Positions 4,569-61,420 of a stretch of DNA of 64,000 nt are shown piece by piece. The notes beneath the pieces were generated by a model. That model worked only from the letters and a program-made list of their open reading frames with translations, searched no databases and had not been told where the DNA came from. The translations under genes and the position numbers were made by a program. The stretch comes from Escherichia coli O127:H6 str. E2348/69. Its GTDB lineage: Bacteria > Pseudomonadota > Gammaproteobacteria > Enterobacterales > Enterobacteriaceae. How positions within the stretch are numbered: the stretch's first letter is position 1; each line of letters opens with the position of its first letter. The stretch lies in assembly GCF_000026545.1 (NCBI RefSeq), contig NC_011601.1; one strand, given 5' to 3'.

Positions 4569-6500
4569 ATGAGTTATCAGGTCTTAGCCCGAAAATGGCG
4601 CCCACAAACCTTTGCTGACGTCGTCGGCCAGGAACATGTGCTGACCGCACTGGCGAACGGCTTGTCGTTAGGGCGTATTCATCATGCTTATCTTTTTTCC
4701 GGCACCCGTGGCGTCGGAAAAACCTCTATCGCCCGACTGTTGGCGAAGGGGCTAAACTGCGAAACCGGCATTACCGCGACGCCGTGCGGCGTGTGCGATA
4801 ACTGTCGTGAAATCGAGCAGGGGCGCTTTGTCGATCTGATTGAAATCGACGCCGCCTCGCGCACTAAAGTCGAAGATACCCGCGACCTGCTGGATAACGT
4901 TCAGTACGCTCCGGCGCGTGGTCGTTTCAAAGTTTATCTCATCGACGAAGTGCATATGCTGTCGCGTCACAGCTTTAACGCACTGTTAAAAACCCTTGAA
5001 GAGCCGCCAGAGCACGTTAAGTTTTTGCTGGCGACGACCGATCCGCAGAAATTGCCGGTGACGATTTTGTCACGCTGTCTGCAATTTCATCTCAAGGCGC
5101 TGGATGTCGAGCAAATTCGCCATCAGCTTGAGCACATCCTCAACGAAGAACATATCGCTCACGAGCCGCGGGCGCTGCAATTGTTGGCACGCGCCGCTGA
5201 AGGCAGCCTGCGAGATGCCTTAAGTCTGACCGACCAGGCGATTGCCAGCGGTGACGGCCAGGTTTCAACCCAGGCGGTCAGTGCGATGCTGGGTACGCTT
5301 GACGACGATCAGGCGTTATCGCTGGTTGAAGCGATGGTCGAGGCCAACGGCGAGCGCGTAATGGCGCTAATTAATGAAGCTGCTGCCCGTGGTATCGAGT
5401 GGGAAGCGTTGCTGGTGGAAATGCTCGGTCTGTTGCATCGTATTGCGATGGTACAACTTTCGCCTGCTGCTCTTGGCAACGACATGGCCGCCATTGAGCT
5501 GCGGATGCGTGAACTGGCGCGCACCATACCGCCGACGGATATTCAGCTTTACTATCAGACGCTGTTGATTGGTCGCAAAGAATTACCGTATGCGCCAGAC
5601 CGCCGTATGGGTGTTGAGATGACGCTGCTGCGCGCGCTGGCGTTCCATCCGCGTATGCCTCTGCCTGAGCCAGAAGTGCCACGCCAGTCCTTTGCGCCCG
5701 TTGCGCCAACGGCAGTAATGACGCCAACACAGGTGCCGCCGCAACCGCAATCAGCGCTGCAGCAGGCACCGACTGTACCGCTCCCGGAAACCACCAGCCA
5801 GGTGCTGGCGGCGCGCCAGCAGTTGCAGCGCGTGCAGGGAGCAACCAAAGCAAAAAAGAGTGAACCGGCAGCCGCTACCCGCGCGCGGCCGGTGAATAAC
5901 GCTGCGCTGGAAAGACTGGCTTCGGTCACCGATCGCGTTCAGGCGCGCCCGGTGCCATCGGCGCTGGAAAAAGCGCCAGCCAAAAAAGAAGCGTATCGCT
6001 GGAAGGCGACCACTCCAGTGATGCAGCAAAAAGAAGTGGTCGCCACGCCGAAGGCGCTGAAAAAAGCGCTGGAACATGAAAAAACGCCGGAACTGGCGGC
6101 GAAGCTGGCGGCAGAAGCCATTGAGCGCGACCCGTGGGCGGCTCAGGTGAGTCAACTTTCGCTACCAAAACTGGTCGAACAGGTGGCGTTAAATGCCTGG
6201 AAAGAGGAGAGCGACAACGCAGTATGTCTGCATTTGCGCTCCTCTCAGCGGCATTTGAACAACCGCGGCGCACAGCAAAAACTGGCTGAAGCGTTGAGCA
6301 CGTTAAAAGGTTCAACGGTTGAACTGACTATCGTTGAAGATGATAATCCCGCGGTGCGTACGCCGCTGGAATGGCGTCAGGCGATATACGAAGAAAAACT
6401 TGCGCAGGCGCGCGAGTCCATTATTGCGGATAATAATATTCAGACCCTGCGTCGATTCTTCGATGCGGAGCTGGATGAAGAAAGTATCCGCCCCATTTGA
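4569..6500 (+). CDS. dnaX: DNA polymerase III tau subunit (643 aa); gamma subunit made by -1 frameshift
   Basis: ORF track; AAA+ Walker A GTRGVGKT; slippery A AAA AAG at about 5852-5858 followed by a stem-loop. Confidence 0.95.
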   Translation: MSYQVLARKWRPQTFADVVGQEHVLTALANGLSLGRIHHAYLFSGTRGVGKTSIARLLAKGLNCETGITATPCGVCDNCREIEQGRFVDLIEIDAASRTKVEDTRDLLDNVQYAPARGRFKVYLIDEVHMLSRHSFNALLKTLEEPPEHVKFLLATTDPQKLPVTILSRCLQFHLKALDVEQIRHQLEHILNEEHIAHEPRALQLLARAAEGSLRDALSLTDQAIASGDGQVSTQAVSAMLGTLDDDQALSLVEAMVEANGERVMALINEAAARGIEWEALLVEMLGLLHRIAMVQLSPAALGNDMAAIELRMRELARTIPPTDIQLYYQTLLIGRKELPYAPDRRMGVEMTLLRALAFHPRMPLPEPEVPRQSFAPVAPTAVMTPTQVPPQPQSALQQAPTVPLPETTSQVLAARQQLQRVQGATKAKKSEPAAATRARPVNNAALERLASVTDRVQARPVPSALEKAPAKKEAYRWKATTPVMQQKEVVATPKALKKALEHEKTPELAAKLAAEAIERDPWAAQVSQLSLPKLVEQVALNAWKEESDNAVCLHLRSSQRHLNNRGAQQKLAEALSTLKGSTVELTIVEDDNPAVRTPLEWRQAIYEEKLAQARESIIADNNIQTLRRFFDAELDEESIRPI

Positions 6501-13809: not shown

Positions 13810-13925
13810 TCGGTTCGTAGGCCAGATAAGGCGTTCACGCCGCATCTGGCATTTTGCTTTCAATGCCTGATGCGACGCTGGCGCGTCTTATCAGGCCTAC
13901 ATATCCGCGCCTATTATCCGGCAAC
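13810..13925. repeat. REP/BIME elements between gsk and ybaL
   Basis: taggccagataaggcgttcacgccgcatctggca and gcctgatgcgacgctggcgcgtcttatcaggcctac. Confidence 0.7.
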
Positions 13926-19573: not shown

Positions 19574-19656
19574 ACACCGTCGCTTAAAGTGACGGCATAA
19601 TAATAAAAATATGAAATTCCTCTTTGACGGGCCAATAGCGATATTGGCCATTTTTT
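19574..19656 (+). ncRNA. chiX: ChiX (MicM/SroB) Hfq-dependent small RNA
   Basis: acaccgtcgcttaaagtgacggcataataataaaaatatgaaattcctctttgacgggccaatagcgatattggccattttttt in the ybaK-ybaP intergenic region, ending in a hairpin plus T-run; matches ChiX as I recall it; coordinates approximate. Confidence 0.65.
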
Positions 19657-20450
19657 TAGCGCAACATCTGCGGCAAATTCCCTTCTCCATACAGATGTAA
19701 AGCACCGACCGCGACCACATAGCGCCCCGGCGGCATGTCGCGTAATTTGTCCCGCCAGGCGAGATTTCGCTGATGCATCAGCACATCGTACAGCGACTGA
19801 CTGAATGTATTGGGCAGCGTTATTTCATTATTTTGCGGCGGCGCATTCAGCCACCAGCCCATCATTTGTTGCAGCAACCGTGCATTGGTGTGCCAGTGGG
19901 TCAGCGTATCGTCCAGCAGCGCCAGTCCTTTGTCAGGGAGCTGGAGCAACATGGCAATCTGTTTTTCTGCGCCTTCCAGTTCAATTACAGGTTTATGTTG
20001 TTGCTTCGCCGCCTGCAATAGCTGGTAATCGATACCATATTCTGCCCGCAGCCCCAGTTTTTGCGCCTGCGTCGCCTGAAGAACCATCGCGATTTGCCAC
20101 AACGGTTGAGTAGAAAAGAGTGACGGAGAAATGCCCATCTCCTGGCTAATGTGCTGCAGGTTTTGGAGTTGCTCCTCGCTAATGCGCTCTTCCAGTGCCT
20201 CGCAGGCAGGCAAATTGGCAAAAGGCGTATCGCTGGTGGAAACATCCGCCTCGACGATCAGCGCATCGGCGTTTTTGAGCTTTTTGAGCAAACGGGTGGG
20301 CAGGGGAGCCATATCGTGGCTACCCATATGAATACTGCCGATCAGATGAAAATGGCGATTGCCGGGAAGAGAGATATCGATAGCAGGCCAGGTGTAATGA
20401 TTACCGCGCAGCGCGGCCCAAAGCGTTTTTACCCGGTACAACAGATCCAT
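19656..20450 (-). CDS. ybaP: TraB/GumN-family protein YbaP, 264 aa
   Basis: ORF track; conserved position. Confidence 0.8.
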   Translation of the reverse strand: MDLLYRVKTLWAALRGNHYTWPAIDISLPGNRHFHLIGSIHMGSHDMAPLPTRLLKKLKNADALIVEADVSTSDTPFANLPACEALEERISEEQLQNLQHISQEMGISPSLFSTQPLWQIAMVLQATQAQKLGLRAEYGIDYQLLQAAKQQHKPVIELEGAEKQIAMLLQLPDKGLALLDDTLTHWHTNARLLQQMMGWWLNAPPQNNEITLPNTFSQSLYDVLMHQRNLAWRDKLRDMPPGRYVVAVGALHLYGEGNLPQMLR

Positions 20451-24696: not shown

Positions 24697-25989
24697 ATGA
24701 TGAACACGGAAGGTAATAACGGTAACAAACCCCTCGGTCTATGGAACGTCGTTTCCATCGGTATTGGGGCAATGGTGGGGGCGGGGATCTTCGCGCTGCT
24801 GGGTCAGGCTGCGTTGCTAATGGAAGCCTCGACCTGGGTCGCCTTTGCTTTTGGCGGTATTGTGGCGATGTTTTCCGGTTATGCCTATGCGCGTCTGGGG
24901 GCGAGCTATCCCAGCAATGGCGGTATTATCGACTTCTTTCGTCGCGGATTAGGCAACGGCGTCTTTTCGCTGGCGCTCTCGTTATTGTACCTGTTGACGC
25001 TGGCGGTGAGCATCGCCATGGTCGCCCGTGCTTTTGGCGCTTATGCCGTGCAGTTTTTGCATGAAGGCAGTCAGGAGGAGCACCTTATATTGCTCTACGC
25101 GTTGGGGAGCATTGCGGTGATGACGCTTTTCAACTCCTTAAGCAACCATGCAGTAGGGCGGCTGGAAGTGATCCTCGTCGGCATTAAAATGATGATTCTG
25201 TTATTGCTGATTATTGCCGGTGTCTGGTCGCTGCAACCGGCGCATATTTCCGTCTCTGCGCCCCCCAGCTCCGGTGCGTTCTTCTCCTGTATCGGGATAA
25301 CCTTCCTTGCCTATGCGGGCTTTGGCATGATGGCGAACGCGGCGGATAAAGTGAAAGATCCGCAGGTCATTATGCCACGGGCGTTTCTGGTGGCGATTGG
25401 CGTTACCACGTTGCTTTATATCTCGCTGGCGCTGGTTTTGCTTAGCGATGTATCGGCATTAGAGTTAGAAAAATATGCCGATACCGCCGTAGCGCAGGCT
25501 GCTTCTCCGCTGCTCGGGCATGTGGGTTATGTGATCGTCGTCATCGGCGCTTTACTGGCGACGGCTTCAGCCATCAACGCGAACCTGTTCGCCGTGTTTA
25601 ACATCATGGACAACATGGGCAGCGAACGCGAACTGCCGAAGCTAATGAATAAATCCCTGTGGCGGCAGAGTACCTGGGGCAACATCATTGTCGTGGTGTT
25701 GATTATGCTGATGACGGCGGCGCTGAATTTAGGCTCACTCGCCAGCGTTGCCAGCGCCACCTTTTTGATTTGCTATCTGGCGGTGTTTGTGGTGGCGATC
25801 CGCCTGCGTCATGATATTCACGCCTCGTTGCCGATTCTTATCGTAGGTACGTTGGTGATGTTGTTGGTGATCGTTGGCTTTATCTACAGTCTCTGGTCCC
25901 AGGGCAGCCGTGCGCTGATATGGATTATTGGCGCACTCTTACTCAGCCTTATTGTGGCAATGGTCATGAAGCGCAATAAAACCGTATAA
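24697..25989 (+). CDS. ybaT: APC-family amino-acid transporter YbaT, 430 aa
   Basis: ORF track; 12-helix permease; 3-bp gap after glsA. Confidence 0.85.
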   Translation: MMNTEGNNGNKPLGLWNVVSIGIGAMVGAGIFALLGQAALLMEASTWVAFAFGGIVAMFSGYAYARLGASYPSNGGIIDFFRRGLGNGVFSLALSLLYLLTLAVSIAMVARAFGAYAVQFLHEGSQEEHLILLYALGSIAVMTLFNSLSNHAVGRLEVILVGIKMMILLLLIIAGVWSLQPAHISVSAPPSSGAFFSCIGITFLAYAGFGMMANAADKVKDPQVIMPRAFLVAIGVTTLLYISLALVLLSDVSALELEKYADTAVAQAASPLLGHVGYVIVVIGALLATASAINANLFAVFNIMDNMGSERELPKLMNKSLWRQSTWGNIIVVVLIMLMTAALNLGSLASVASATFLICYLAVFVVAIRLRHDIHASLPILIVGTLVMLLVIVGFIYSLWSQGSRALIWIIGALLLSLIVAMVMKRNKTV

Positions 25990-26113: not shown

Positions 26114-26521
26114 ATGAACATTAGCGATGTAGCAAAAATTACCGGCCTGACCAGCAAAGCCATTCGCTTCTATGAAGAGAAGGGGCTGGTGACGCCGCCG
26201 ATGCGCAGCGAAAACGGTTATCGCACCTACACGCAGCAGCATCTCAACGAACTGACCTTACTGCGCCAGGCACGCCAGGTGGGCTTTAACCTGGAGGAGA
26301 GCGGCGAACTGGTGAATCTGTTTAACGATCCGCAGCGTCACAGCGCCGACGTCAAACGTCGTACGCTGGAGAAAGTAGCGGAGATCGAACAGCATATCGA
26401 AGAACTGCAATCCATGCGTAACCAGCTGCTGGCGCTGGCGAATGCCTGTCCCGGTGATGACAGCGCCGACTGCCCGATTATCGAAAATCTCTCCGGCTGC
26501 TGTCATCATCGGGCGGGGTGA
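26114..26521 (+). CDS. cueR: Copper-responsive MerR-family regulator CueR, 135 aa
   Basis: ORF track; N-terminal MerR HTH ([25 protein letters not shown]) and C-terminal CxxxxxxxC metal site. Confidence 0.95.
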
Positions 26522-27252
26522 TTAAGGCTTGCGAAAATAGTCGTCCATTATTTTCGTCAGCTCCGGACGTTCCCCGTCATCATTGATGGCAAAATCCAGA
26601 AAAAAAGCATCTGCTTGCGGCGTTCGGTTTTGCGCCATCAACCGGAAGGTGAGGGGGCCTGACCAGGTTTCGGATGGGCTGATGTGCTTATCAGGGCCGA
26701 AACTCTCCCATGCGTTGGGCGGTAATGTTTTGCACGCGGTGAGTTTTGGTATGTGGTATTGCAGCTCTGTTTTGTGCAGACATTCCCCGCCAGGAAATAC
26801 CAGGGTTTGTTGCTCATCATTAAAATGGGTTGCCGTGCTGAGCACCAGTGTTTTGAGCGGTCGCCCTTCCAGCGCGGCGGCAGTAGCCTTATGGTGTCCG
26901 TCGAGCAGAACGCAGAGATAGGAATCAGGGAGATACCAGGCCAGAGCGCGGGCGATTCCAGTTTTCGAGAGCAGACAAAAACCGGGCGGCTCCCTGTTCA
27001 TCCTCCGCAAAACCGCTGTAGACAAATTCCGCACAGGTAGGGCAATCAGCCTCGGACCAGAAACGTATTAACGGGACATCCTTGCCAGCAGAGCGAATGG
27101 ATAAGACCGTGCGAGTGCGGATCGTAAATCACACATTGACGCAGAAATCCTTTCCCGGACTTCACCGAAAAAATGACGCCCGCAGCGGTATTTTTCAGCA
27201 GACGTACTTCAGGTTTTCGAAAGGGGAAAAAGCATGGCCACTCCTTAGCCAA
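26522..27252 (-). pseudogene. Hypothetical accessory gene of about 240 codons, split by an apparent frameshift near 27046-27068
   Basis: Two adjacent minus-strand ORFs (27046..27252 and 26522..27034) in different frames; the downstream frame stays open up to 27067; no family confidently recognised; stop abuts cueR stop. Confidence 0.45.
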
Positions 27253-27323
27253 AATTTCAGTTCCCTGAACTGTGCCAGAAAATTACGCTGGTGACTATTG
27301 CTCTGGAAATGGAAACGGTGTCC

Positions 27324-27530
27324 TTACCCATTAATCCCCGTTTGCACCGAAAGAATATGCTGCAAACTTTCTACCATTATGCGCCCCGACTGAAATAAGC
27401 CTTCCTGGATTTCGTTGTTAACATTCACAGCGTGAACCAGGGAGGCTAATAACACCACTTGCAAGAAGGCAAAAATAAACGCACCGATAATCATAATATG
27501 CGTCAGGGGGATTTTCCTTTGCTCCTTCAT
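27324..27530 (-). CDS. Small single-pass membrane protein (68 aa), hypothetical
   Basis: ORF track; one hydrophobic helix IIGAFIFAFLQVVLLASLV; start overlaps the stop of the upstream lipoprotein gene by 4 bp. Confidence 0.5.
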   Translation of the reverse strand: MKEQRKIPLTHIMIIGAFIFAFLQVVLLASLVHAVNVNNEIQEGLFQSGRIMVESLQHILSVQTGING

Positions 27531-27949
27531 TTTAAATAACCCACAAACTGGCCTTCTTTCATTAAGGCGACTTTTCCTGTGTGATGATAAACAATGACAT
27601 TATACAGACCCGACTGATAAACAGTAGCATCTTTATTGTCTTCATCAATTACACATAATGAATCATTGAGATAAGCAAAGTTCTTACTGCTCATTCTAAA
27701 GGTCATGCCAAATCCTTTATAAATGGCTTTCTTTGCCGCCTGGGCATGTTGTGCGGCTTCTGCATTTTTAAATGCCTGCGCCTCGGATGCACTTAAAATA
27801 GCCGTCTGACGCTGTTGTTCTGCGAGGTAACAGGTGTCATGGCTGACGCCCTGCGCCTGGCAATCTGCGATGCGGGAAGTGGGTGAACTACAGCCAGCCA
27901 GTAATATAACCGCCAGCAGGGAAAACGATTTAATGGAGCTATTCATCAT
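27527..27949 (-). CDS. Predicted lipoprotein (140 aa), hypothetical
   Basis: ORF track; signal peptide with lipobox LLAGC followed by S at +2; not a K-12 core protein I recognise. Confidence 0.6.
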   Translation of the reverse strand: MMNSSIKSFSLLAVILLAGCSSPTSRIADCQAQGVSHDTCYLAEQQRQTAILSASEAQAFKNAEAAQHAQAAKKAIYKGFGMTFRMSSKNFAYLNDSLCVIDEDNKDATVYQSGLYNVIVYHHTGKVALMKEGQFVGYLK

Positions 27950-28002
27950 TGTTAACCTTAAATAATGTGCGGAAAATTGCGAATAAGAAATTGCTGTTAA
28001 AA

Positions 28003-29019
28003 TTAGAACGAATATCCCACGCCGACACCCGCACCGAAATCAGATTGTGTATCCGCAGAAATACCTGCTTTAAGTACCGTATGCGTTCCGGCATTAAAAG
28101 ATGTTCCGACAGACACCGCAGATTCACCGTTAAAGGTTCCCGCTCCCGCTGAGACCATCATCAAGTCACCGGTTTTCACCTGTGGTTGTGAGGCGATAGC
28201 GATGGCAGATGCAGTTCCCGCATTGGCTTCTTTACGATTGTCCTCAACTTCGTTTTTTAGCGAACTGAAATGGTTATTGAGCGTGTTAATTTGCTGGCTG
28301 TTATCTGCAACCCGTTTTTGGGTGTTGGTTAACTGTTGCTGCGTTTGTGCGGAATCTTGTCTCAGACTTTCAATTTGCTCATGTGCCTGGACAGACTTCT
28401 GCGCCAGACTTTGCATTTGTTTATCGTATTGAGCCCTTTCTTTTTGCTGTTGTGCTGCCACATCGGTTGTCAGTGCATTCATTTTCTGCCCTTGTTCCGT
28501 GGTAGTGCGCTGATTAGCCTCATTTTGAGCCGCCAGCCTGGCATTAATCATCTCCTGATAATGCGCGGTATTTTGCGTATCTCCAGTCGCGGCGAGCGTT
28601 TTTTGTGTGGCTACGATCTGCGCCTGTTGCTCTGTAATTTGCGTTTGCTGGGCATCAGTTACCGTAGACTGTCGGGCGTTGATCATGCTCTGATAACGGG
28701 CGGTTGTCTGTACATCACCTGTAGCGGCAACGGTTTTTTGTCCTGCGTCAGGATCTGTCTGGACAGGGGGAGTCTGAGTGGTATCAGGTGTTTCAGAAGG
28801 GATGTAGTGATGTTCAGTCAAATAGGTATATGCAGCGGGGCTGTTGTCGGTGCGTTCTAAAAAGCGGGTAATCTTCTGCTCAATCTCCGATTGCGACATG
28901 CCCGAGTTAATGGCTGAAAGCTCTGTTGCCGCCGCTTCAATGGTATCACCAGCTAAAACAAAAGGGCTGGATGTTGCTGAAATTATGAGTGCCAGTAAAG
29001 CTACGTTTACAGTTTTCAT
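28003..29019 (-). CDS. Short trimeric-autotransporter-like protein with YadA-type C-terminal membrane anchor (338 aa)
   Basis: ORF track; N-terminal signal peptide, Q/T/A-rich coiled-coil repeats, C-terminus ...GESAVSVGTSFNAG...GAGVGVGYSF resembling the YadA anchor and ending in an aromatic residue. Confidence 0.7.
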   Translation of the reverse strand: MKTVNVALLALIISATSSPFVLAGDTIEAAATELSAINSGMSQSEIEQKITRFLERTDNSPAAYTYLTEHHYIPSETPDTTQTPPVQTDPDAGQKTVAATGDVQTTARYQSMINARQSTVTDAQQTQITEQQAQIVATQKTLAATGDTQNTAHYQEMINARLAAQNEANQRTTTEQGQKMNALTTDVAAQQQKERAQYDKQMQSLAQKSVQAHEQIESLRQDSAQTQQQLTNTQKRVADNSQQINTLNNHFSSLKNEVEDNRKEANAGTASAIAIASQPQVKTGDLMMVSAGAGTFNGESAVSVGTSFNAGTHTVLKAGISADTQSDFGAGVGVGYSF

Positions 29020-29386
29020 TCATTTTCTCTCGATCAAAATAAGTTGCATTAATGTTTCTATAAGAAACAAATAATATTGTTATTAAGAAATAAAATACGT
29101 TGCAATATGATCGAAATCTACGCCGCCATTTGTGTGATGTAAAGCGCATTTTTGTCTGTTGTAAGCGTAAATATCACCAATAAGAAACAAAAAATGTTTC
29201 TTTTATAAATTAAAAAGGAAAACATTTCGTGCTCTTTCAATGTAAAAAAGAGTAAAGACTTGTTTTGATAAGCGAAATAAATTCTGTTTCTGGACTAAAC
29301 GTGAACCGGTTCCTGATGTGTGCTAAAATGCGTTTCTTTGATAAATCTCAATTTTTAAGAGGTTTACGCCAGGCAGGAACATTTAA

Positions 29387-29749
29387 ATGAATGAATTTGA
29401 GAAGATTTTTAATGAAATGAATCTGGACCGGGCATTGCTACCGATCCTTTTTCGTTCGAACCGGTCAACAGTGTGGAAGTATTTAAGCGGCGATAGTACG
29501 GCTCCTGCCTCAGCTATGTCACTGATTATGCTGTTGCAGTTAATCCAGAAACGAAACCCCGATCTATTAGCCGAATGGTTAACGCTTTCTGATTTCACCA
29601 TTCCGCCAGAAGTTTACCTGGACCAGCCTGATTACTGGAAAGGGTGGGTGTATACCCAACACAAGGTCAATAAAAACGTCCTGGAATATCTAAAAAAACA
29701 TTATCCGGATGAAGACCAAAAAAGTATGGGTAAAGGCCGGGAAGAGTAA
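29387..29749 (+). CDS. Putative HTH DNA-binding regulator (120 aa), hypothetical
   Basis: ORF track; HTH-like segment RSNRSTVWKYLSGDSTAP; divergent from the autotransporter-like gene across a 370-bp AT-rich region. Confidence 0.45.
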   Translation: MNEFEKIFNEMNLDRALLPILFRSNRSTVWKYLSGDSTAPASAMSLIMLLQLIQKRNPDLLAEWLTLSDFTIPPEVYLDQPDYWKGWVYTQHKVNKNVLEYLKKHYPDEDQKSMGKGREE

Positions 29750-29754
29750 TTTTG

Positions 29755-38289: not shown

Positions 38290-38400
<111 letters not shown>

Positions 38401-38498
38401 CAGTGTGCATTTTGGCAATAAATATGAAACCAACTGTCATGTCGGTTTTTTTAAAGGCCGAAGGTGGTAAACCTTCGGCCTTAGCTACGTTTCCTCAG

Positions 38499-38582
38499 TT
38501 ATTCAATAAATTGACGGATCAGTTCTAGCAGCGCGATTAGCGCCTTAAGAACGATGAGAACTTTATCGAGAAAAGTTTTCAT
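38499..38582 (-). CDS. Putative 27-aa amphipathic micro-protein (MKTFLDKVLIVLKALIALLELIRQFIE)
   Basis: Hand-translated; AAGGGAG Shine-Dalgarno 6 nt upstream of the ATG; followed downstream by a perfect 10-bp-stem hairpin (about 38456-38480). Confidence 0.35.
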   Translation of the reverse strand: MKTFLDKVLIVLKALIALLELIRQFIE

Positions 38583-38656
38583 CCGTTGCTCCCTTAAGGG
38601 AGAAAGACAATCACAGCTTACCCTTACGTTGCCTGTAACTATGATTTTCTTCATGT

Positions 38657-39958
38657 GCTAGATGAGGACTGCCTCTCTCCAAATTAGAGCACCAGAATCA
38701 GCACCACCTGTATCCTGACCAGGACTTAAAAGTACTTTTCCGCACTGCGGTAATCCCTTGAGGCAGTATCACTACTAGCGTCGGGATTGTATCGCCAACA
38801 TAGCTGTTGTGTAAGTTCACAGAGATATTGCAATTGCCTCCGGATAAGTAAGGGGAGATTGCACTATGCAAATGCAGCATCTGATGGTTGGCTATCCTAA
38901 GTACTACCAAACGGCCGATTATGCGTTGAGGCTTTCAGTGATGGCTGATATAGCAACAATGAGAATGAAGGCTCTGCACTTCTGGGATAAACACGGTATT
39001 TCTGCAGCTTCTGAAGCCTTTGGCGTGTCCTGCCGCACGCTTTACTGGTGGCGTCAGTTACTGAACAAGGAAGGACCTGAGGGGCTAATCCCGCACAGTA
39101 AGGCACCTCTGGTGCGACGAAAAAAACACTGGCATCCCGATGTGCTGAAAGAGATTCGACGCCTCAGGACAGAGCTGCCGAACCTCGGTAAAGAGCAGAT
39201 TTTTGTTCGCCTGAAGCCCTGGTGCGAACAGCGCTATCTGGCCTGTCCGAGTGTTTCCACCATCGGCAGAATGATCGCTGCCGCACATGATAAAATGCGG
39301 ATGATACCTGTGCGTCTGGGATCGCGGGGGAAGGCACTGCTTGTCAAAAAGCGGTCTGCCAAACCCCGCAGGCCAAAGCACTACCGCCCGGTAAAGACAG
39401 GTGAGCTCATTGGGATGGACGCCATTGAGCTCAGAATGGGCGAACTGCGTCGCTATGTCATCACCATGATCGACGAATGCAGCAATTACGCGCTGGCGCT
39501 GGCTGTGCCGTCACTCAACAGTGATATCGTCAATCACTTCTTCAGCCGCGCAGCCCGGTTGTTCCCGGTCGGTATCAGCCAGATAATCACAGATAACGGA
39601 AAAGAGTTCCTGGGAAACTTCGACAAAACGCTGCAGGAAGCCGCTATCAAACACCTCTGGACCTATCCCTACACGCCAAAAATGAACGCTATCTGTGAAC
39701 GTTTTAACCGGACGTTAAGAGAGCAGTTTATTGAATTTAATGAGATTTTACTCTTTGAAGATCTGGCGCTATTTAACCAGAAGCTGGCGGAATATCTGGT
39801 GCTGTATAACAGCAAAAGACCCCACAAGGCGCTCGCACTAATGACGCCCGTGGAATATATTTTAAAAGAGAATAAAAATTGCAATATGTGGTGGACCCAT
39901 ACAGCTGTTTGAATATGTAGGCATCCTGACTTATAATTCACTTGCTAGATGAGGACTG
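38657..39958 (+). mobile_element. Putative insertion sequence carrying one DDE transposase gene (IS481-like architecture); ends uncertain
   Basis: Transposase ORF bracketed by a 16-bp direct repeat tgctagatgaggactg at about 38657-38672 and 39943-39958; occupies the position where K-12 has the rhsD element. Confidence 0.45.
38866..39912 (+). CDS. DDE transposase, N-terminal HTH plus integrase-core (rve) domain, 348 aa
   Basis: ORF track; catalytic D (GMDAIE), D (ITDNGKEF) and E (ICERFNRT) with 35-residue D-to-E spacing. Confidence 0.7.
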   Translation: MQMQHLMVGYPKYYQTADYALRLSVMADIATMRMKALHFWDKHGISAASEAFGVSCRTLYWWRQLLNKEGPEGLIPHSKAPLVRRKKHWHPDVLKEIRRLRTELPNLGKEQIFVRLKPWCEQRYLACPSVSTIGRMIAAAHDKMRMIPVRLGSRGKALLVKKRSAKPRRPKHYRPVKTGELIGMDAIELRMGELRRYVITMIDECSNYALALAVPSLNSDIVNHFFSRAARLFPVGISQIITDNGKEFLGNFDKTLQEAAIKHLWTYPYTPKMNAICERFNRTLREQFIEFNEILLFEDLALFNQKLAEYLVLYNSKRPHKALALMTPVEYILKENKNCNMWWTHTAV

Positions 39959-40094
39959 TTTCATTTCTGCCCGGAACCACCAAGTCTTGGGCGGAAAAAA
40001 TAAAAAAACCGACTGTCATGTCGGTTTTTTTATATCTGTATTCTGGTGCAACCATTCTGTTCTCACGACAATCGCCGTTTCAGAATACCGCCCA

Positions 40095-41204
<1,110 letters not shown>

Positions 41205-41257
41205 TCAAATCAGCTTGCGCGCTATTTTACGCGCCAACGCGCAAGGAAACTTGATTT

Positions 41258-42184
41258 TTAACTGCGTGGGTTGCCGAAAATTTCTAAAAATCCGCTGATT
41301 TCTGGCCTGCGCTGGGTAAACAAGGTCACAATATCTTCTACCGCTTTGCCGCTGCCAAATTTGCGCCATGCCAGACTCAATGGCGAAGGAGGGCGCATCG
41401 TTGGGATTACCCGGCTGACCAGTTGTTGATTATCGAGCATTGACTGGCAAAGTGATTTTGGCAAAAAACCAATGCCAACGCCCGCCAGATGGGCGGCGAT
41501 TTTCGTTTCCATATCGGGAACAATAATCTCTTTTTGCCCCGGCAATCGCCAGGCGACGCGTTTGGTTAAGGTGCGGGCGCTGTCTTCAATATTGACCGCC
41601 GGAAAGCGCCGCAACTGTGCTTCTGTTAGCGGCTCTTCAACGTTCGCCAGCGGATGATCCGCCGCCATGACAAAGCGCCATTGCACCGATCCTAAGGGAT
41701 CAAGACTAAAGGTATTTGCCAGCGCCTCGGTTCCCGTGACGCCGATAGCCAGTGAAAAACCTTCGTACAATAGCGAGTCCCAGACGCCCATATAGATTTG
41801 TCGGGAGATGTGAAATTGGGTAAACGGGTAACGTTCATTTAGCCACGCCAGCAGCCTGGCAACGGCCTGGGGGTTGTAGAGCAGGTTGTTGATGACAATA
41901 TTCACCTGGCGTTCCACGCCATCATTCACCTGTTGCAGCTCGCTGGGCATACTTTCCAGCCAGCTCAGCCAGTCTCTGGCCTGACAAAGTAGATGCTCGC
42001 CAGCCGCTGTCAACGTCACGCTGCGAGTCGTGCGGAAAAAGAGCGCCACTCCGGTATTCTCTTCCAGAAGTTTAATGCGATAACTAATCGTCGCCGTGGT
42101 TTTACATAATCGTTCTGCCGCTTTTGAAAAACTTCCTGTTTCAGCAACCGCAATGAAAGTCCGCAAGGTTTCTGGATCGAACAT
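41258..42184 (-). CDS. allS: LysR-type activator of allantoin catabolism AllS, 308 aa
   Basis: ORF track; LysR HTH; divergent from allA. Confidence 0.85.
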
Positions 42185-42291
42185 CTTCAGGTATCCCCTT
42201 TTAAATCCGCAAGTTGCGTGATTTTCTTATCCTCTGATTTATCAGTATTTTTACATGATAACCCTGTTCAATTTGTGGACTAAATCTAGTT

Positions 42292-42308
42292 TTGGAAAAA
42301 TATTCCAA
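42292..42308. promoter_or_regulatory. Candidate AllR operator in the allS-allA intergenic region
   Basis: Perfect palindrome TTGGAAAAATATTCCAA. Confidence 0.6.
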
Positions 42309-42413
42309 CTTTTGTGTTGATGTTGTTCTCTTAAGGTTTTAGATTGCCTGTTATTGAAACCAAGCTGACCGGTCGGTGGTGGTTGAACGGAATTATGTTA
42401 CAAGGACAAAAAG

Positions 42414-42896
42414 ATGAAACTTCAGGTATTACCGTTAAGTCAGGAAGCCTTTAGTGCTTATGGCGACGTAATCGAAACGCAGAAACGGGATTTTTTCCAT
42501 ATTAACAATGGACTGGTGGAGCGTTACCACGATTTGGCGCTGGTTGAGATTCTTGAGCAAGACCGTACGCTTATCAGCATTAACCGCGCGCAACCGGCGA
42601 ATCTGCCGCTGACCATTCACGAACTCGAACGTCATCCGCTGGGCACTCAGGCCTTTATCCCGATGAAAGGTGAAGTGTTTGTGGTAGTCGTGGCGTTAGG
42701 TGACGACAAACCAGACCTGTCAACCCTGCGGGCGTTTATTACCAATGGCGAACAGGGAGTGAATTACCATCGTAACGTCTGGCATCACCCACTTTTCGCC
42801 TGGCAGCGCGTCACCGATTTTCTGACCATCGATCGCGGCGGCAGTGACAACTGTGATGTTGAAAGTATTCCTGAACAGGAACTCTGTTTTGCGTGA
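42414..42896 (+). CDS. allA: Ureidoglycolate lyase AllA, 160 aa
   Basis: ORF track; recognised. Confidence 0.9.
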
Positions 42897-42973
42897 CGCC
42901 TGCAACCGACTTGCATAAGATAAACGAATTGTTCATTGTTTATGCTCATTTGTAGGTCGGAGTTAACGTAGGT

Positions 42974-43789
42974 ATGACGGAAGTTAGACGGCGCGGCAGG
43001 CCAGGACAGGCGGAGCCTGTGGCACAGAAGGGTGCACAGGCGTTAGAGCGGGGAATTGCGATTCTGCAATATCTGGAAAAAAGTGGGGGAAGTTCGTCGG
43101 TTAGCGATATCTCTCTCAATCTGGATTTGCCGCTCTCCACGACCTTTCGCTTGCTGAAGGTTTTACAGGCAGCGGATTTTGTCTATCAGGACAGTCAGTT
43201 AGGCTGGTGGCATATAGGATTAGGTGTCTTTAACGTCGGTGCAGCGTACATCCATAACCGCGATGTCCTCTCCGTCGCCGGGCCGTTTATGCGCCGCCTG
43301 ATGTTACTTTCCGGCGAAACGGTCAATGTCGCGATCCGTAACGGCAATGAAGCGGTATTAATTGGTCAGTTAGAGTGTAAATCGATGGTCAGAATGTGTG
43401 CGCCGCTGGGCAGTCGTCTGCCGCTGCATGCTTCCGGTGCGGGCAAGGCGCTGCTTTATCCGCTGGCGGAAGAAGAGTTGATGAGCATCATTCTGCAAAC
43501 CGGTTTGCAGCAGTTTACGCCAACGACGCTTGTGGATATGCCCACCTTGCTGAAGGACCTGGAACAAGCGCGTGAACTGGGCTATACCGTAGATAAAGAA
43601 GAGCATGTTGTCGGCCTGAATTGCATAGCTTCAGCAATTTACGATGATGTAGGTAGTGTTGTTGCCGCTATCTCCATCTCCGGCCCTTCATCAAGACTGA
43701 CAGAAGATCGTTTTGTCAGTCAGGGTGAGCTGGTCAGAGACACCGCCCGTGATATCAGCACGGCGTTGGGACTGAAAGCACATCCATAG
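42974..43789 (+). CDS. allR: IclR-family repressor AllR, 271 aa
   Basis: ORF track; IclR HTH and effector domain. Confidence 0.9.
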
Positions 43790-43800
43790 TGTCTGTCGTA

Positions 43801-43826
43801 TCCCGCTCTGCGGAGCGGGTTTTTTT
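43801..43826 (+). terminator. Intrinsic terminator after allR
   Basis: cccgctc tgcg gagcggg hairpin followed by TTTTTTT. Confidence 0.7.
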
Positions 43827-43841
43827 GACAAAATTTGAGAG

Positions 43842-43858
43842 TTGGAAAATTTTTCCAA
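43842..43858. promoter_or_regulatory. Candidate AllR operator in the gcl promoter
   Basis: Palindrome TTGGAAAATTTTTCCAA about 20 bp upstream of the gcl start. Confidence 0.6.
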
Positions 43859-43878
43859 TTAATAGAGGTAGGAATAAA

Positions 43879-45660
43879 ATGGCAAAAATGAGAGCCGTTG
43901 ACGCGGCAATGTATGTGCTGGAGAAAGAAGGTATCACCACCGCCTTCGGCGTTCCGGGAGCTGCAATCAATCCGTTCTACTCAGCGATGCGTAAGCACGG
44001 CGGTATTCGTCACATTCTGGCGCGTCATGTGGAAGGCGCTTCGCACATGGCGGAAGGTTATACCCGCGCAACGGCAGGGAATATCGGCGTATGTCTGGGG
44101 ACTTCCGGTCCTGCGGGCACGGACATGATCACCGCGCTCTATTCCGCTTCTGCTGATTCCATTCCTATTCTGTGTATTACCGGCCAGGCCCCGCGCGCCC
44201 GTTTGCATAAAGAAGATTTCCAGGCCGTTGATATTGAAGCAATTGCTAAACCGGTCAGCAAAATGGCGGTTACAGTTCGTGAAGCGGCGCTGGTGCCTCG
44301 TGTGCTGCAACAGGCGTTTCACCTGATGCGTTCTGGTCGCCCGGGTCCGGTACTGGTGGATTTACCGTTCGACGTACAGGTTGCGGAAATCGAGTTTGAT
44401 CCTGATATGTACGAACCGCTGCCGGTCTACAAACCTGCTGCCAGCCGTATGCAGATCGAAAAAGCTGTAAAAATGTTAATCCAGGCCGAACGTCCGGTGA
44501 TTGTTGCCGGAGGCGGGGTAATCAATGCTGACGCAGCTGCACTGTTACAACAGTTTGCTGAACTGACCAGCGTTCCGGTGATCCCAACGCTGATGGGCTG
44601 GGGCTGTATCCCGGACGATCATGAACTGATGGCCGGGATGGTGGGTCTGCAAACCGCGCATCGTTACGGTAACGCAACGTTGCTGGCGTCCGATATGGTG
44701 TTTGGTATCGGTAACCGTTTCGCCAACCGTCATACCGGTTCGGTAGAGAAATACACCGAAGGGCGCAAAATCGTTCATATCGATATTGAGCCGACGCAAA
44801 TTGGCCGCGTGCTGTGTCCGGATCTCGGCATTGTCTCTGATGCTAAAGCGGCGCTGACACTGCTGGTTGAAGTGGCGCAGGAGATGCAAAAAGCGGGTCG
44901 TCTGCCGTGTCGTAAAGAGTGGGTCGCCGACTGCCAGCAGCGCAAACGCACTTTGCTGCGCAAAACCCACTTCGACAACGTGCCGGTGAAACCGCAGCGC
45001 GTGTATGAAGAGATGAACAAAGCTTTTGGCCGCGATGTTTGTTATGTCACCACCATTGGCCTGTCACAAATCGCTGCGGCACAAATGCTGCATGTCTTTA
45101 AAGACCGCCACTGGATCAACTGTGGGCAGGCAGGCCCGCTGGGCTGGACGATTCCGGCGGCGCTGGGGGTTTGTGCCGCTGATCCAGAGCGCAATGTGGT
45201 GGCGATTTCCGGTGACTTCGACTTCCAGTTCCTGATTGAAGAATTAGCCGTTGGCGCACAGTTCAACATTCCGTACATCCATGTACTGGTCAATAACGCC
45301 TATCTGGGTCTGATTCGCCAGTCGCAACGTGCCTTTGATATGGATTACTGCGTACAGCTCGCGTTCGAAAATATTAACTCCAGCGAAGTGAACGGTTATG
45401 GCGTCGACCACGTAAAAGTAGCGGAAGGTTTAGGTTGTAAAGCAATTCGCGTTTTCAAACCGGAAGATATTGCACCAGCCTTTGAACAGGCGAAAATCTT
45501 AATGGCGCAATATCGGGTACCGGTAGTCGTGGAAGTTATTCTCGAGCGTGTGACCAATATTTCGATGGGCAGTGAACTGGATAACGTCATGGAATTTGAA
45601 GATATCGCCGATAACGCCGCGGACGCACCGACTGAAACCTGTTTCATGCACTATGAATAA
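43879..45660 (+). CDS. gcl: Glyoxylate carboligase (TPP-dependent), 593 aa
   Basis: ORF 43789..45660 trimmed to [18 protein letters not shown]... Confidence 0.9.
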
Positions 45661-52996: not shown

Positions 52997-53124
52997 CTAT
53001 TACCTTTAAAGCGGATGCGATTTATATCGCATCTTTTTTTACCTGAATTGACTACAAAAAAAGCCACGGAATAAACCGTGGCAAAATCCAACATAGCTAA
53101 AAATAATCAGGCGAGTGGTATGAC

Positions 53125-61214: not shown

Positions 61215-61420
61215 TGGCACATCTAGCCTGATGCGATGCTGGCGCGTCTTATCAGGTCTACAGGCGGTGTCGGAACGGTAGGCCGGATAAGGCGTTCACG
61301 CCGCATCCGGCAATCGGCACACCATGCCTGATGCGATGCTGGCGCATCTTATCAGGCCTACAGTCGGTGTTGGAACGGTAGGCCTGATAAGGCGTTCACG
61401 CCGCATGCGGCAAGAAAATG
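61215..61420. repeat. Tandem BIME: two roughly 100-bp units, each a REP pair
   Basis: gcctgatgcgatgctggcgcgtcttatcagg...taggccggataaggcgttcacgccgcatccggca repeated almost exactly. Confidence 0.8.

Follow-up and report, generated by a model that had tools for sequence, protein, structure and literature searches.

The closest described system to the locus considered here is the allantoin regulon of Escherichia coli K-12, where work by Rintoul et al. 2002, Walker et al. 2006 and Hasegawa et al. 2008 is said to have placed operators of the repressor AllR at allS-allA and at gcl. Two papers report AllR binding both in the control region between allS and allA and at the gcl promoter, at the level of the region, and describe glyoxylate as the inducer, which lowers AllR binding, and allantoin as a corepressor reported to strengthen repression (PMC12535856; PMC11323563). 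The E. coli AllR motif is given as KTTGGAAWAWTWTTCCAAC in Table 1 of PMC8222616, citing Rintoul 2002, and a 2026 article credits to the same study a recognition site of 37 nucleotides, AAATCTAGTTTTGGAAAAATATTCCAACTTTTGTATT (PMC13300388). ChIP-seq work characterizes AllR as highly specific, with strong binding at one or a few places (PMC12059191). Across the IclR family, the centre of a site typically lies 20–80 nt upstream of the start of the regulated gene, a tendency and not a strict rule, and the majority of orthologous groups have tandem sites 18–22 bp apart, which suit tetramer binding (PMC8222616). The paralogous repressor IclR resembles AllR in that its boxes at aceBAK and iclR (TGGAAATNATTTCCA) are A/T-rich palindromes with GGAA/TTCC half-sites from which glyoxylate releases the protein, although IclR is a different regulator with a different regulon.

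The window analyzed here, the whole 64,000-nucleotide stretch, corresponds to positions 448001–512000 of NZ_LT827011.1 (E. coli O127:H6 E2348/69). According to the annotation, it carries allS (41258–42184, minus strand), coding for a LysR-type activator with Pfam HTH_1 and LysR_substrate domains, and on the plus strand allA (42414–42896; Ureidogly_lyase), coding for ureidoglycolate lyase, allR (42974–43789; HTH_IclR and IclR_C), coding for an IclR-family repressor, and gcl (43879–45660; three Pfam TPP-enzyme domains), coding for glyoxylate carboligase and standing first in an operon, with hyi, glxR, allW, allB, ybbY and glxK following in that order. The 2.8-kb stretch from 41200 to 44000 is 100% identical to E2348/69 and is present in 5,404 of 5,426 complete E. 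coli genomes; among these genomes, the allS-gcl stretch is found at two places on plasmids, and 34 records carry it at only 80–90% identity. The identity of the regulator is clear: the AllR protein matches PDB entry 1TF1, the solved structure of the AllR effector domain (E = 2e-110), and is identical to K-12 AllR over 271/271 residues. The cognate regulator is thus present and intact, and the biochemistry of K-12 AllR is directly applicable to E2348/69.

Two palindromes with the core TTGGAA-N5-TTCCAA are present exactly as an earlier note on this DNA had quoted them, and both fall within the range 42280–43860 that it gave. Operator 1 (TTGGAAAAATATTCCAA, 42292–42308, unstranded) is a single palindrome common to the divergent allS and allA promoters and lies midway between the two genes, with 107 nt separating it from the ATG of allS and 105 nt from that of allA. 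Operator 2 (TTGGAAAATTTTTCCAA, 43842–43858, unstranded) lies in the gcl promoter, 52 nt past the allR stop codon and 20 nt ahead of the gcl ATG; the distances to the start codons agree with the assignment of the sites to the allS-allA intergenic region and the gcl promoter. Measured from its centre, the gcl site is 29 nt upstream of the ATG, within the 20–80 nt typical of the family, and the allS-allA site, at 114 and 116 nt from its two start codons, falls beyond that range. In operator 1, 7/8 arm pairs match about one central base, as the description "near-perfect" had implied, whereas the same words understate operator 2, which is a perfect 8-1-8 palindrome (8/8 pairs). Both sites are twofold-symmetric, as are IclR-family operators in which each helix-turn-helix monomer contacts one half-site.

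Operator 1 fits the published motif KTTGGAAWAWTWTTCCAAC at 19/19 positions and operator 2 at 18/19, the sole difference being the last flanking base (T for C). Operator 1 also falls inside the 37-bp recognition sequence AAATCTAGTTTTGGAAAAATATTCCAACTTTTGTATT, as that sequence is quoted in the 2026 article; the corresponding segment (42282–42318, unstranded) matches it save for a SNP at 42316, outside the palindrome, where E2348/69 has G and K-12 has A. The fit of the motif to both sites, the HTH_IclR and IclR_C domains of AllR, and a secondary literature that assigns these regions to AllR all bear out the proposal that the sites are operators of an IclR-type AllR. We therefore regard both palindromes as almost certainly operators of AllR, an IclR-family repressor whose gene lies between the two; for AllR binding and the effector responses we follow the literature. 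These are the already-known AllR operators of the allantoin regulon and nothing new. They carry little weight as a discovery, being textbook-level, database-curated operators of a well-studied regulon, and the check shows that a true regulatory motif is recognizable from raw sequence.

We scanned for AllR using one genome per species, which returned 22 enterobacterial loci, 20 of them with both flanks. In these 20 complete loci AllR is 66–91% identical to the E. coli protein, and nine or more genera are represented (Superficieibacter, Klebsiella, Raoultella, Citrobacter, Buttiauxella, Izhakiella, Atlantibacter and Providencia, besides further Enterobacteriaceae). The gene order, with allS divergent from allA-allR-gcl, is kept in 20/20 complete loci, and so is a set of two palindromes at the same positions, one within the allS-allA spacer and the other a short way upstream of gcl; the position of operator 2 is also kept in E. 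whittamii L005. One record returned by the scan, titled "Chryseobacterium sp. 18061" (L012, CACSKA010000001.1), contains an enterobacterial allS-allA-allR-gcl locus that is close to that of Citrobacter sp. 18056, with an AllR 86% identical to the E. coli protein, which suggests a mislabelled or contaminated assembly.

This conserved association bears on a rival reading in which the two sites are boxes of the paralogous IclR (TGGAAATNATTTCCA), so that the allantoin genes would be tied to glyoxylate-shunt control and not to AllR. The resemblance is close, since over its inner 15 bases the gcl site departs from the IclR box at only two positions and the allS-allA site at three, and IclR likewise senses glyoxylate (PMC11323563). 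However, these mismatches lie at inner specificity positions, so that neither site matches the IclR consensus, and the AllR sites are further set apart from the IclR box by a length of 17 bp, an A4/T4-type centre, and an invariant outer T/A. The published AllR motif, by comparison, fits exactly, including this outer T/A, which brings the site to 17 bp. Moreover, the sites flank allR and accompany it in every orthologous locus, and the literature assigns both regions to AllR. We consider control by IclR in place of AllR very improbable; weak cross-binding of IclR at these sites may occur.

The sites assigned to AllR are deeply conserved at the level of single bases. Among the 40 orthologous sites, 36 match the core exactly and the other four carry one mismatch. 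The two motifs average 1.86 and 1.79 bits of information per position, versus 0.75 and 0.81 for their 45-bp flanks; the half-sites thus hardly change across genera, in contrast to the diverged flanks. At the five central positions the bases differ between loci and are A/T-rich throughout (AAATA, AATTA, AATTT, AGTTT, AAACT, TATTT and others). From Escherichia to Providencia, this cross-genus footprint delineates an invariant core that is exactly TTGGAA-N5-TTCCAA around a variable A/T centre. The same pattern speaks against the palindromes acting as RNA hairpins in the transcripts, whether as attenuators or as processing or stability elements, and not as DNA operators. Both can indeed fold into short hairpins (−4.4 and −7.2 kcal/mol; z = −1.3 and −2.2), but these hairpins are weak and are not followed by a T-run, the half-sites show no compensatory changes across species, the inner bases vary without preserved pairing (e.g., AAATA, AAACT), and both predicted transcription starts are downstream of operator 1. 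Invariant half-sites around a varying centre therefore indicate recognition by a protein and not an RNA structure, a reading to which we assign hardly any probability.

The two operators are unique in the window. By chance, a 64-kb window would hold 0.01 exact matches to TTGGAA-N5-TTCCAA, and at least two occurred in 0/100 shuffles; thus, even though both sites, like the intergenic DNA around them, are A/T-rich, their origin as chance products of such promoter DNA, without specific function, is practically out of the question given also that their half-sites are almost invariant across genera with diverged flanks. With up to two mismatches allowed, the whole window contains no site beyond these two (2 found, 3.08 expected), and with up to three it contains 21 matches versus 30.8 expected; hence, weak matches are noise. 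A position weight matrix (PWM) built from the orthologous sites and scanned over the window scores operator 2 at 31.9 bits and operator 1 at 31.1 bits, and the third-best match only reaches 9.8 bits. The motif scan of the whole window that the earlier note had proposed has thus been carried out and yields no further credible copy by any of these three measures. The third-best PWM match (GTTAGAAAAATATGCCGAT, 25465–25481) is within the ybaT coding sequence and, at 9.8 versus 31–32 bits, probably reflects chance. Near the true sites, a three-mismatch match at 42387–42403 is unsupported as an AllR site, and another at 43869–43885, which overlaps the gcl start, owes its conservation only to the Shine-Dalgarno and coding sequence there. 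The stretch upstream of allR (42897–42973) holds no AllR motif by either the mismatch scan or the PWM.

K-12 has the same genes and an identical AllR protein, and its operator 1 (532329–532345) is identical to that of E2348/69. The 229-bp allS-allA intergenic regions of the two strains differ at two bases, both outside the palindrome. In K-12, operator 2 (533879–533895, TTGGAAAAATTTTCCAA) has a central A where E2348/69 has a central T, and five further SNPs are found in the aligned flanks. Operator 2 of E2348/69 is the reverse complement of its K-12 counterpart and keeps the perfect symmetry. Since the change in the central base merely flips a perfect palindrome into its reverse complement, no regulatory difference from K-12 is expected. 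More widely, the 61-bp regions around the two sites are present in 5,403 and 5,404 of 5,426 complete E. coli genomes, and among the E. coli copies inspected, those that diverge most (93% and 90% identity) have every substitution outside the palindromes.

To place the operators relative to the promoters, we used a gapped cross-genus alignment, in which conserved blocks appear on either side of operator 1. On the allA side, the blocks GTTGATGT (42316–42323) and GGTTTTAGATTG (42335–42346) fit a candidate allA promoter on the plus strand (42317–42345), with a −35 element TTGATG (42317–42322), a 17-bp spacer, and a −10 element TAGATT (42340–42345). On the allS side, two blocks are conserved almost as well as the operator itself, TGATTTnTAAGTATTTTTnCATAAT / TGATTTATCAGTATTTTTACATGAT (42236–42259) and ATGTGGnCTAAATCT / ATGTGGACTAAATCT (42272–42287), and together they probably hold the allS promoter. 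Our best guess for this promoter, made with low confidence, lies on the minus strand (42255–42284) and combines a −10 element TATCAT (42260 to 42255) with a weak −35 element TTTAGT (42284 to 42279). Reading the sequence of the same strand also yields an alternative candidate −10, TGtAAAAAT (42255 to 42247), and another candidate promoter element, TAGATT (42288 to 42283); the TTGGAA half-sites themselves were considered as further candidates for the allS −35 element. Operator 1 sits 7–8 bp from both candidate −35 hexamers, each of which shares 2–3 bp with the 37-bp recognition sequence. Because the 37-bp stretch reaches both −35 regions, one bound repressor could hinder both divergent promoters. 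The palindrome itself is upstream of, and not over, the −35 and −10 elements predicted for allA and allS, which makes simple steric occlusion less obvious.

The geometry at gcl is tighter. A candidate −35 element that matches the consensus at 6/6 positions, TTGACA (43825–43830, plus strand), is located 11 bp upstream of operator 2, and its TTG lies at a fixed distance from the operator in the orthologues. A conserved gcl Shine-Dalgarno sequence, GAGG, is found at 43865–43868. As the Shine-Dalgarno sequence must be transcribed, transcription of gcl should start at or before ∼43862, and any gcl −10 element would therefore be inside operator 2. Lying between the consensus −35 and the Shine-Dalgarno sequence, operator 2 would thus cover the spacer, the −10 element, and the start region. 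A consensus promoter scan recovered none of the inferred promoters, which fell below its threshold; its sole match is implausible, with a −10 element that would extend into the gcl start codon. Consequently, the promoter assignments rest on conservation and geometry. The upstream edge of the gcl promoter is shared with the intrinsic terminator of allR (43802–43826, plus strand), a hairpin (43802–43819) followed by a T-run that enters the gcl −35 element; the terminator folds at −19 kcal/mol (z = −4.3), and the hairpin is kept across genera. In K-12, the sRNA AllZ (b4831), which has been verified by northern blot (PMC8175672), is annotated from the allR 3′ end and its terminator, and the equivalent stretch here is 43592–43826. 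The terminator and AllZ 3′ end, the candidate gcl −35 element, and the AllR operator are thus crowded within ∼60 bp.

These placements suggest how AllR may control the regulon, with the exact overlap of operators and promoters being inferred. Within the AllR tetramer, a dimer would place one helix-turn-helix on each TTGGAA half-site. On operator 2, AllR would be expected to exclude RNA polymerase from the gcl promoter. On operator 1, between the back-to-back allS and allA promoters, one bound repressor may shut both, which is less certain than at gcl. Glyoxylate, the product of AllA, would then lower DNA binding by AllR and derepress allA, the gcl operon, and allS, and the derepressed AllS could in turn activate the oxamate-branch operons. 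The suggestion that the palindromes control both branches is accordingly a fair one: AllR acts directly on allA and on the gcl operon, which represents the glycerate branch, and on the oxamate side it acts indirectly, through allS, on the AllS-activated allD and allF operons.

AllR reportedly acts as a tetramer (Walker 2006), and the AllR structure 1TF1 consists of four chains. The operators of TtgV, an IclR-family regulator that is likewise tetrameric, consist of tandem palindromes, whereas each AllR control region contains one: an offset profile of the PWM over 21 loci revealed no second conserved palindrome within 80 bp of either operator. The two operators are 1,550 bp apart in the window and 1,541–1,636 bp apart in other genera. 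Given that one palindrome suffices for one dimer, that AllR is tetrameric, and that a tandem site is missing, one tetramer could bridge both operators. We regard such bridging of operators 1 and 2, with a repression loop formed around allA and allR, as a speculative and rather unlikely arrangement; if true, the loop would couple the two promoter regions.

Several features elsewhere in the window were recorded along the way. Rfam matches above the gathering score comprise STnc480, which falls within the allantoin cluster between the convergent genes glxK and allE, two naRNA4 elements (REP-derived), sroB, and the dnaX frameshift element (53052–53118, 13820–13897, 61281–61358, 19574–19657, and 5833–5897, in the order listed). 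A strain-specific insert between cueR and ybbJ (26520–29750) contains a protein with a YadA C-terminal domain (trimeric autotransporter-like), several hypothetical ORFs, and a frameshifted gene. Adjoining mnmH, an IS481-family transposase (38866–39912) is flanked by a dinQ-like type I toxin coding sequence (38499–38654, minus strand) and a match to the sRNA ES036 (38319–38361), and by a match to an AgrB-like antisense RNA (39945–40033). The IS is bracketed by direct repeats measuring 40 nt (83% identity) and 22 nt (91% identity), and the segment as a whole (38319–40033) looks like a second dinQ/agr-type repeat locus interrupted by the IS.
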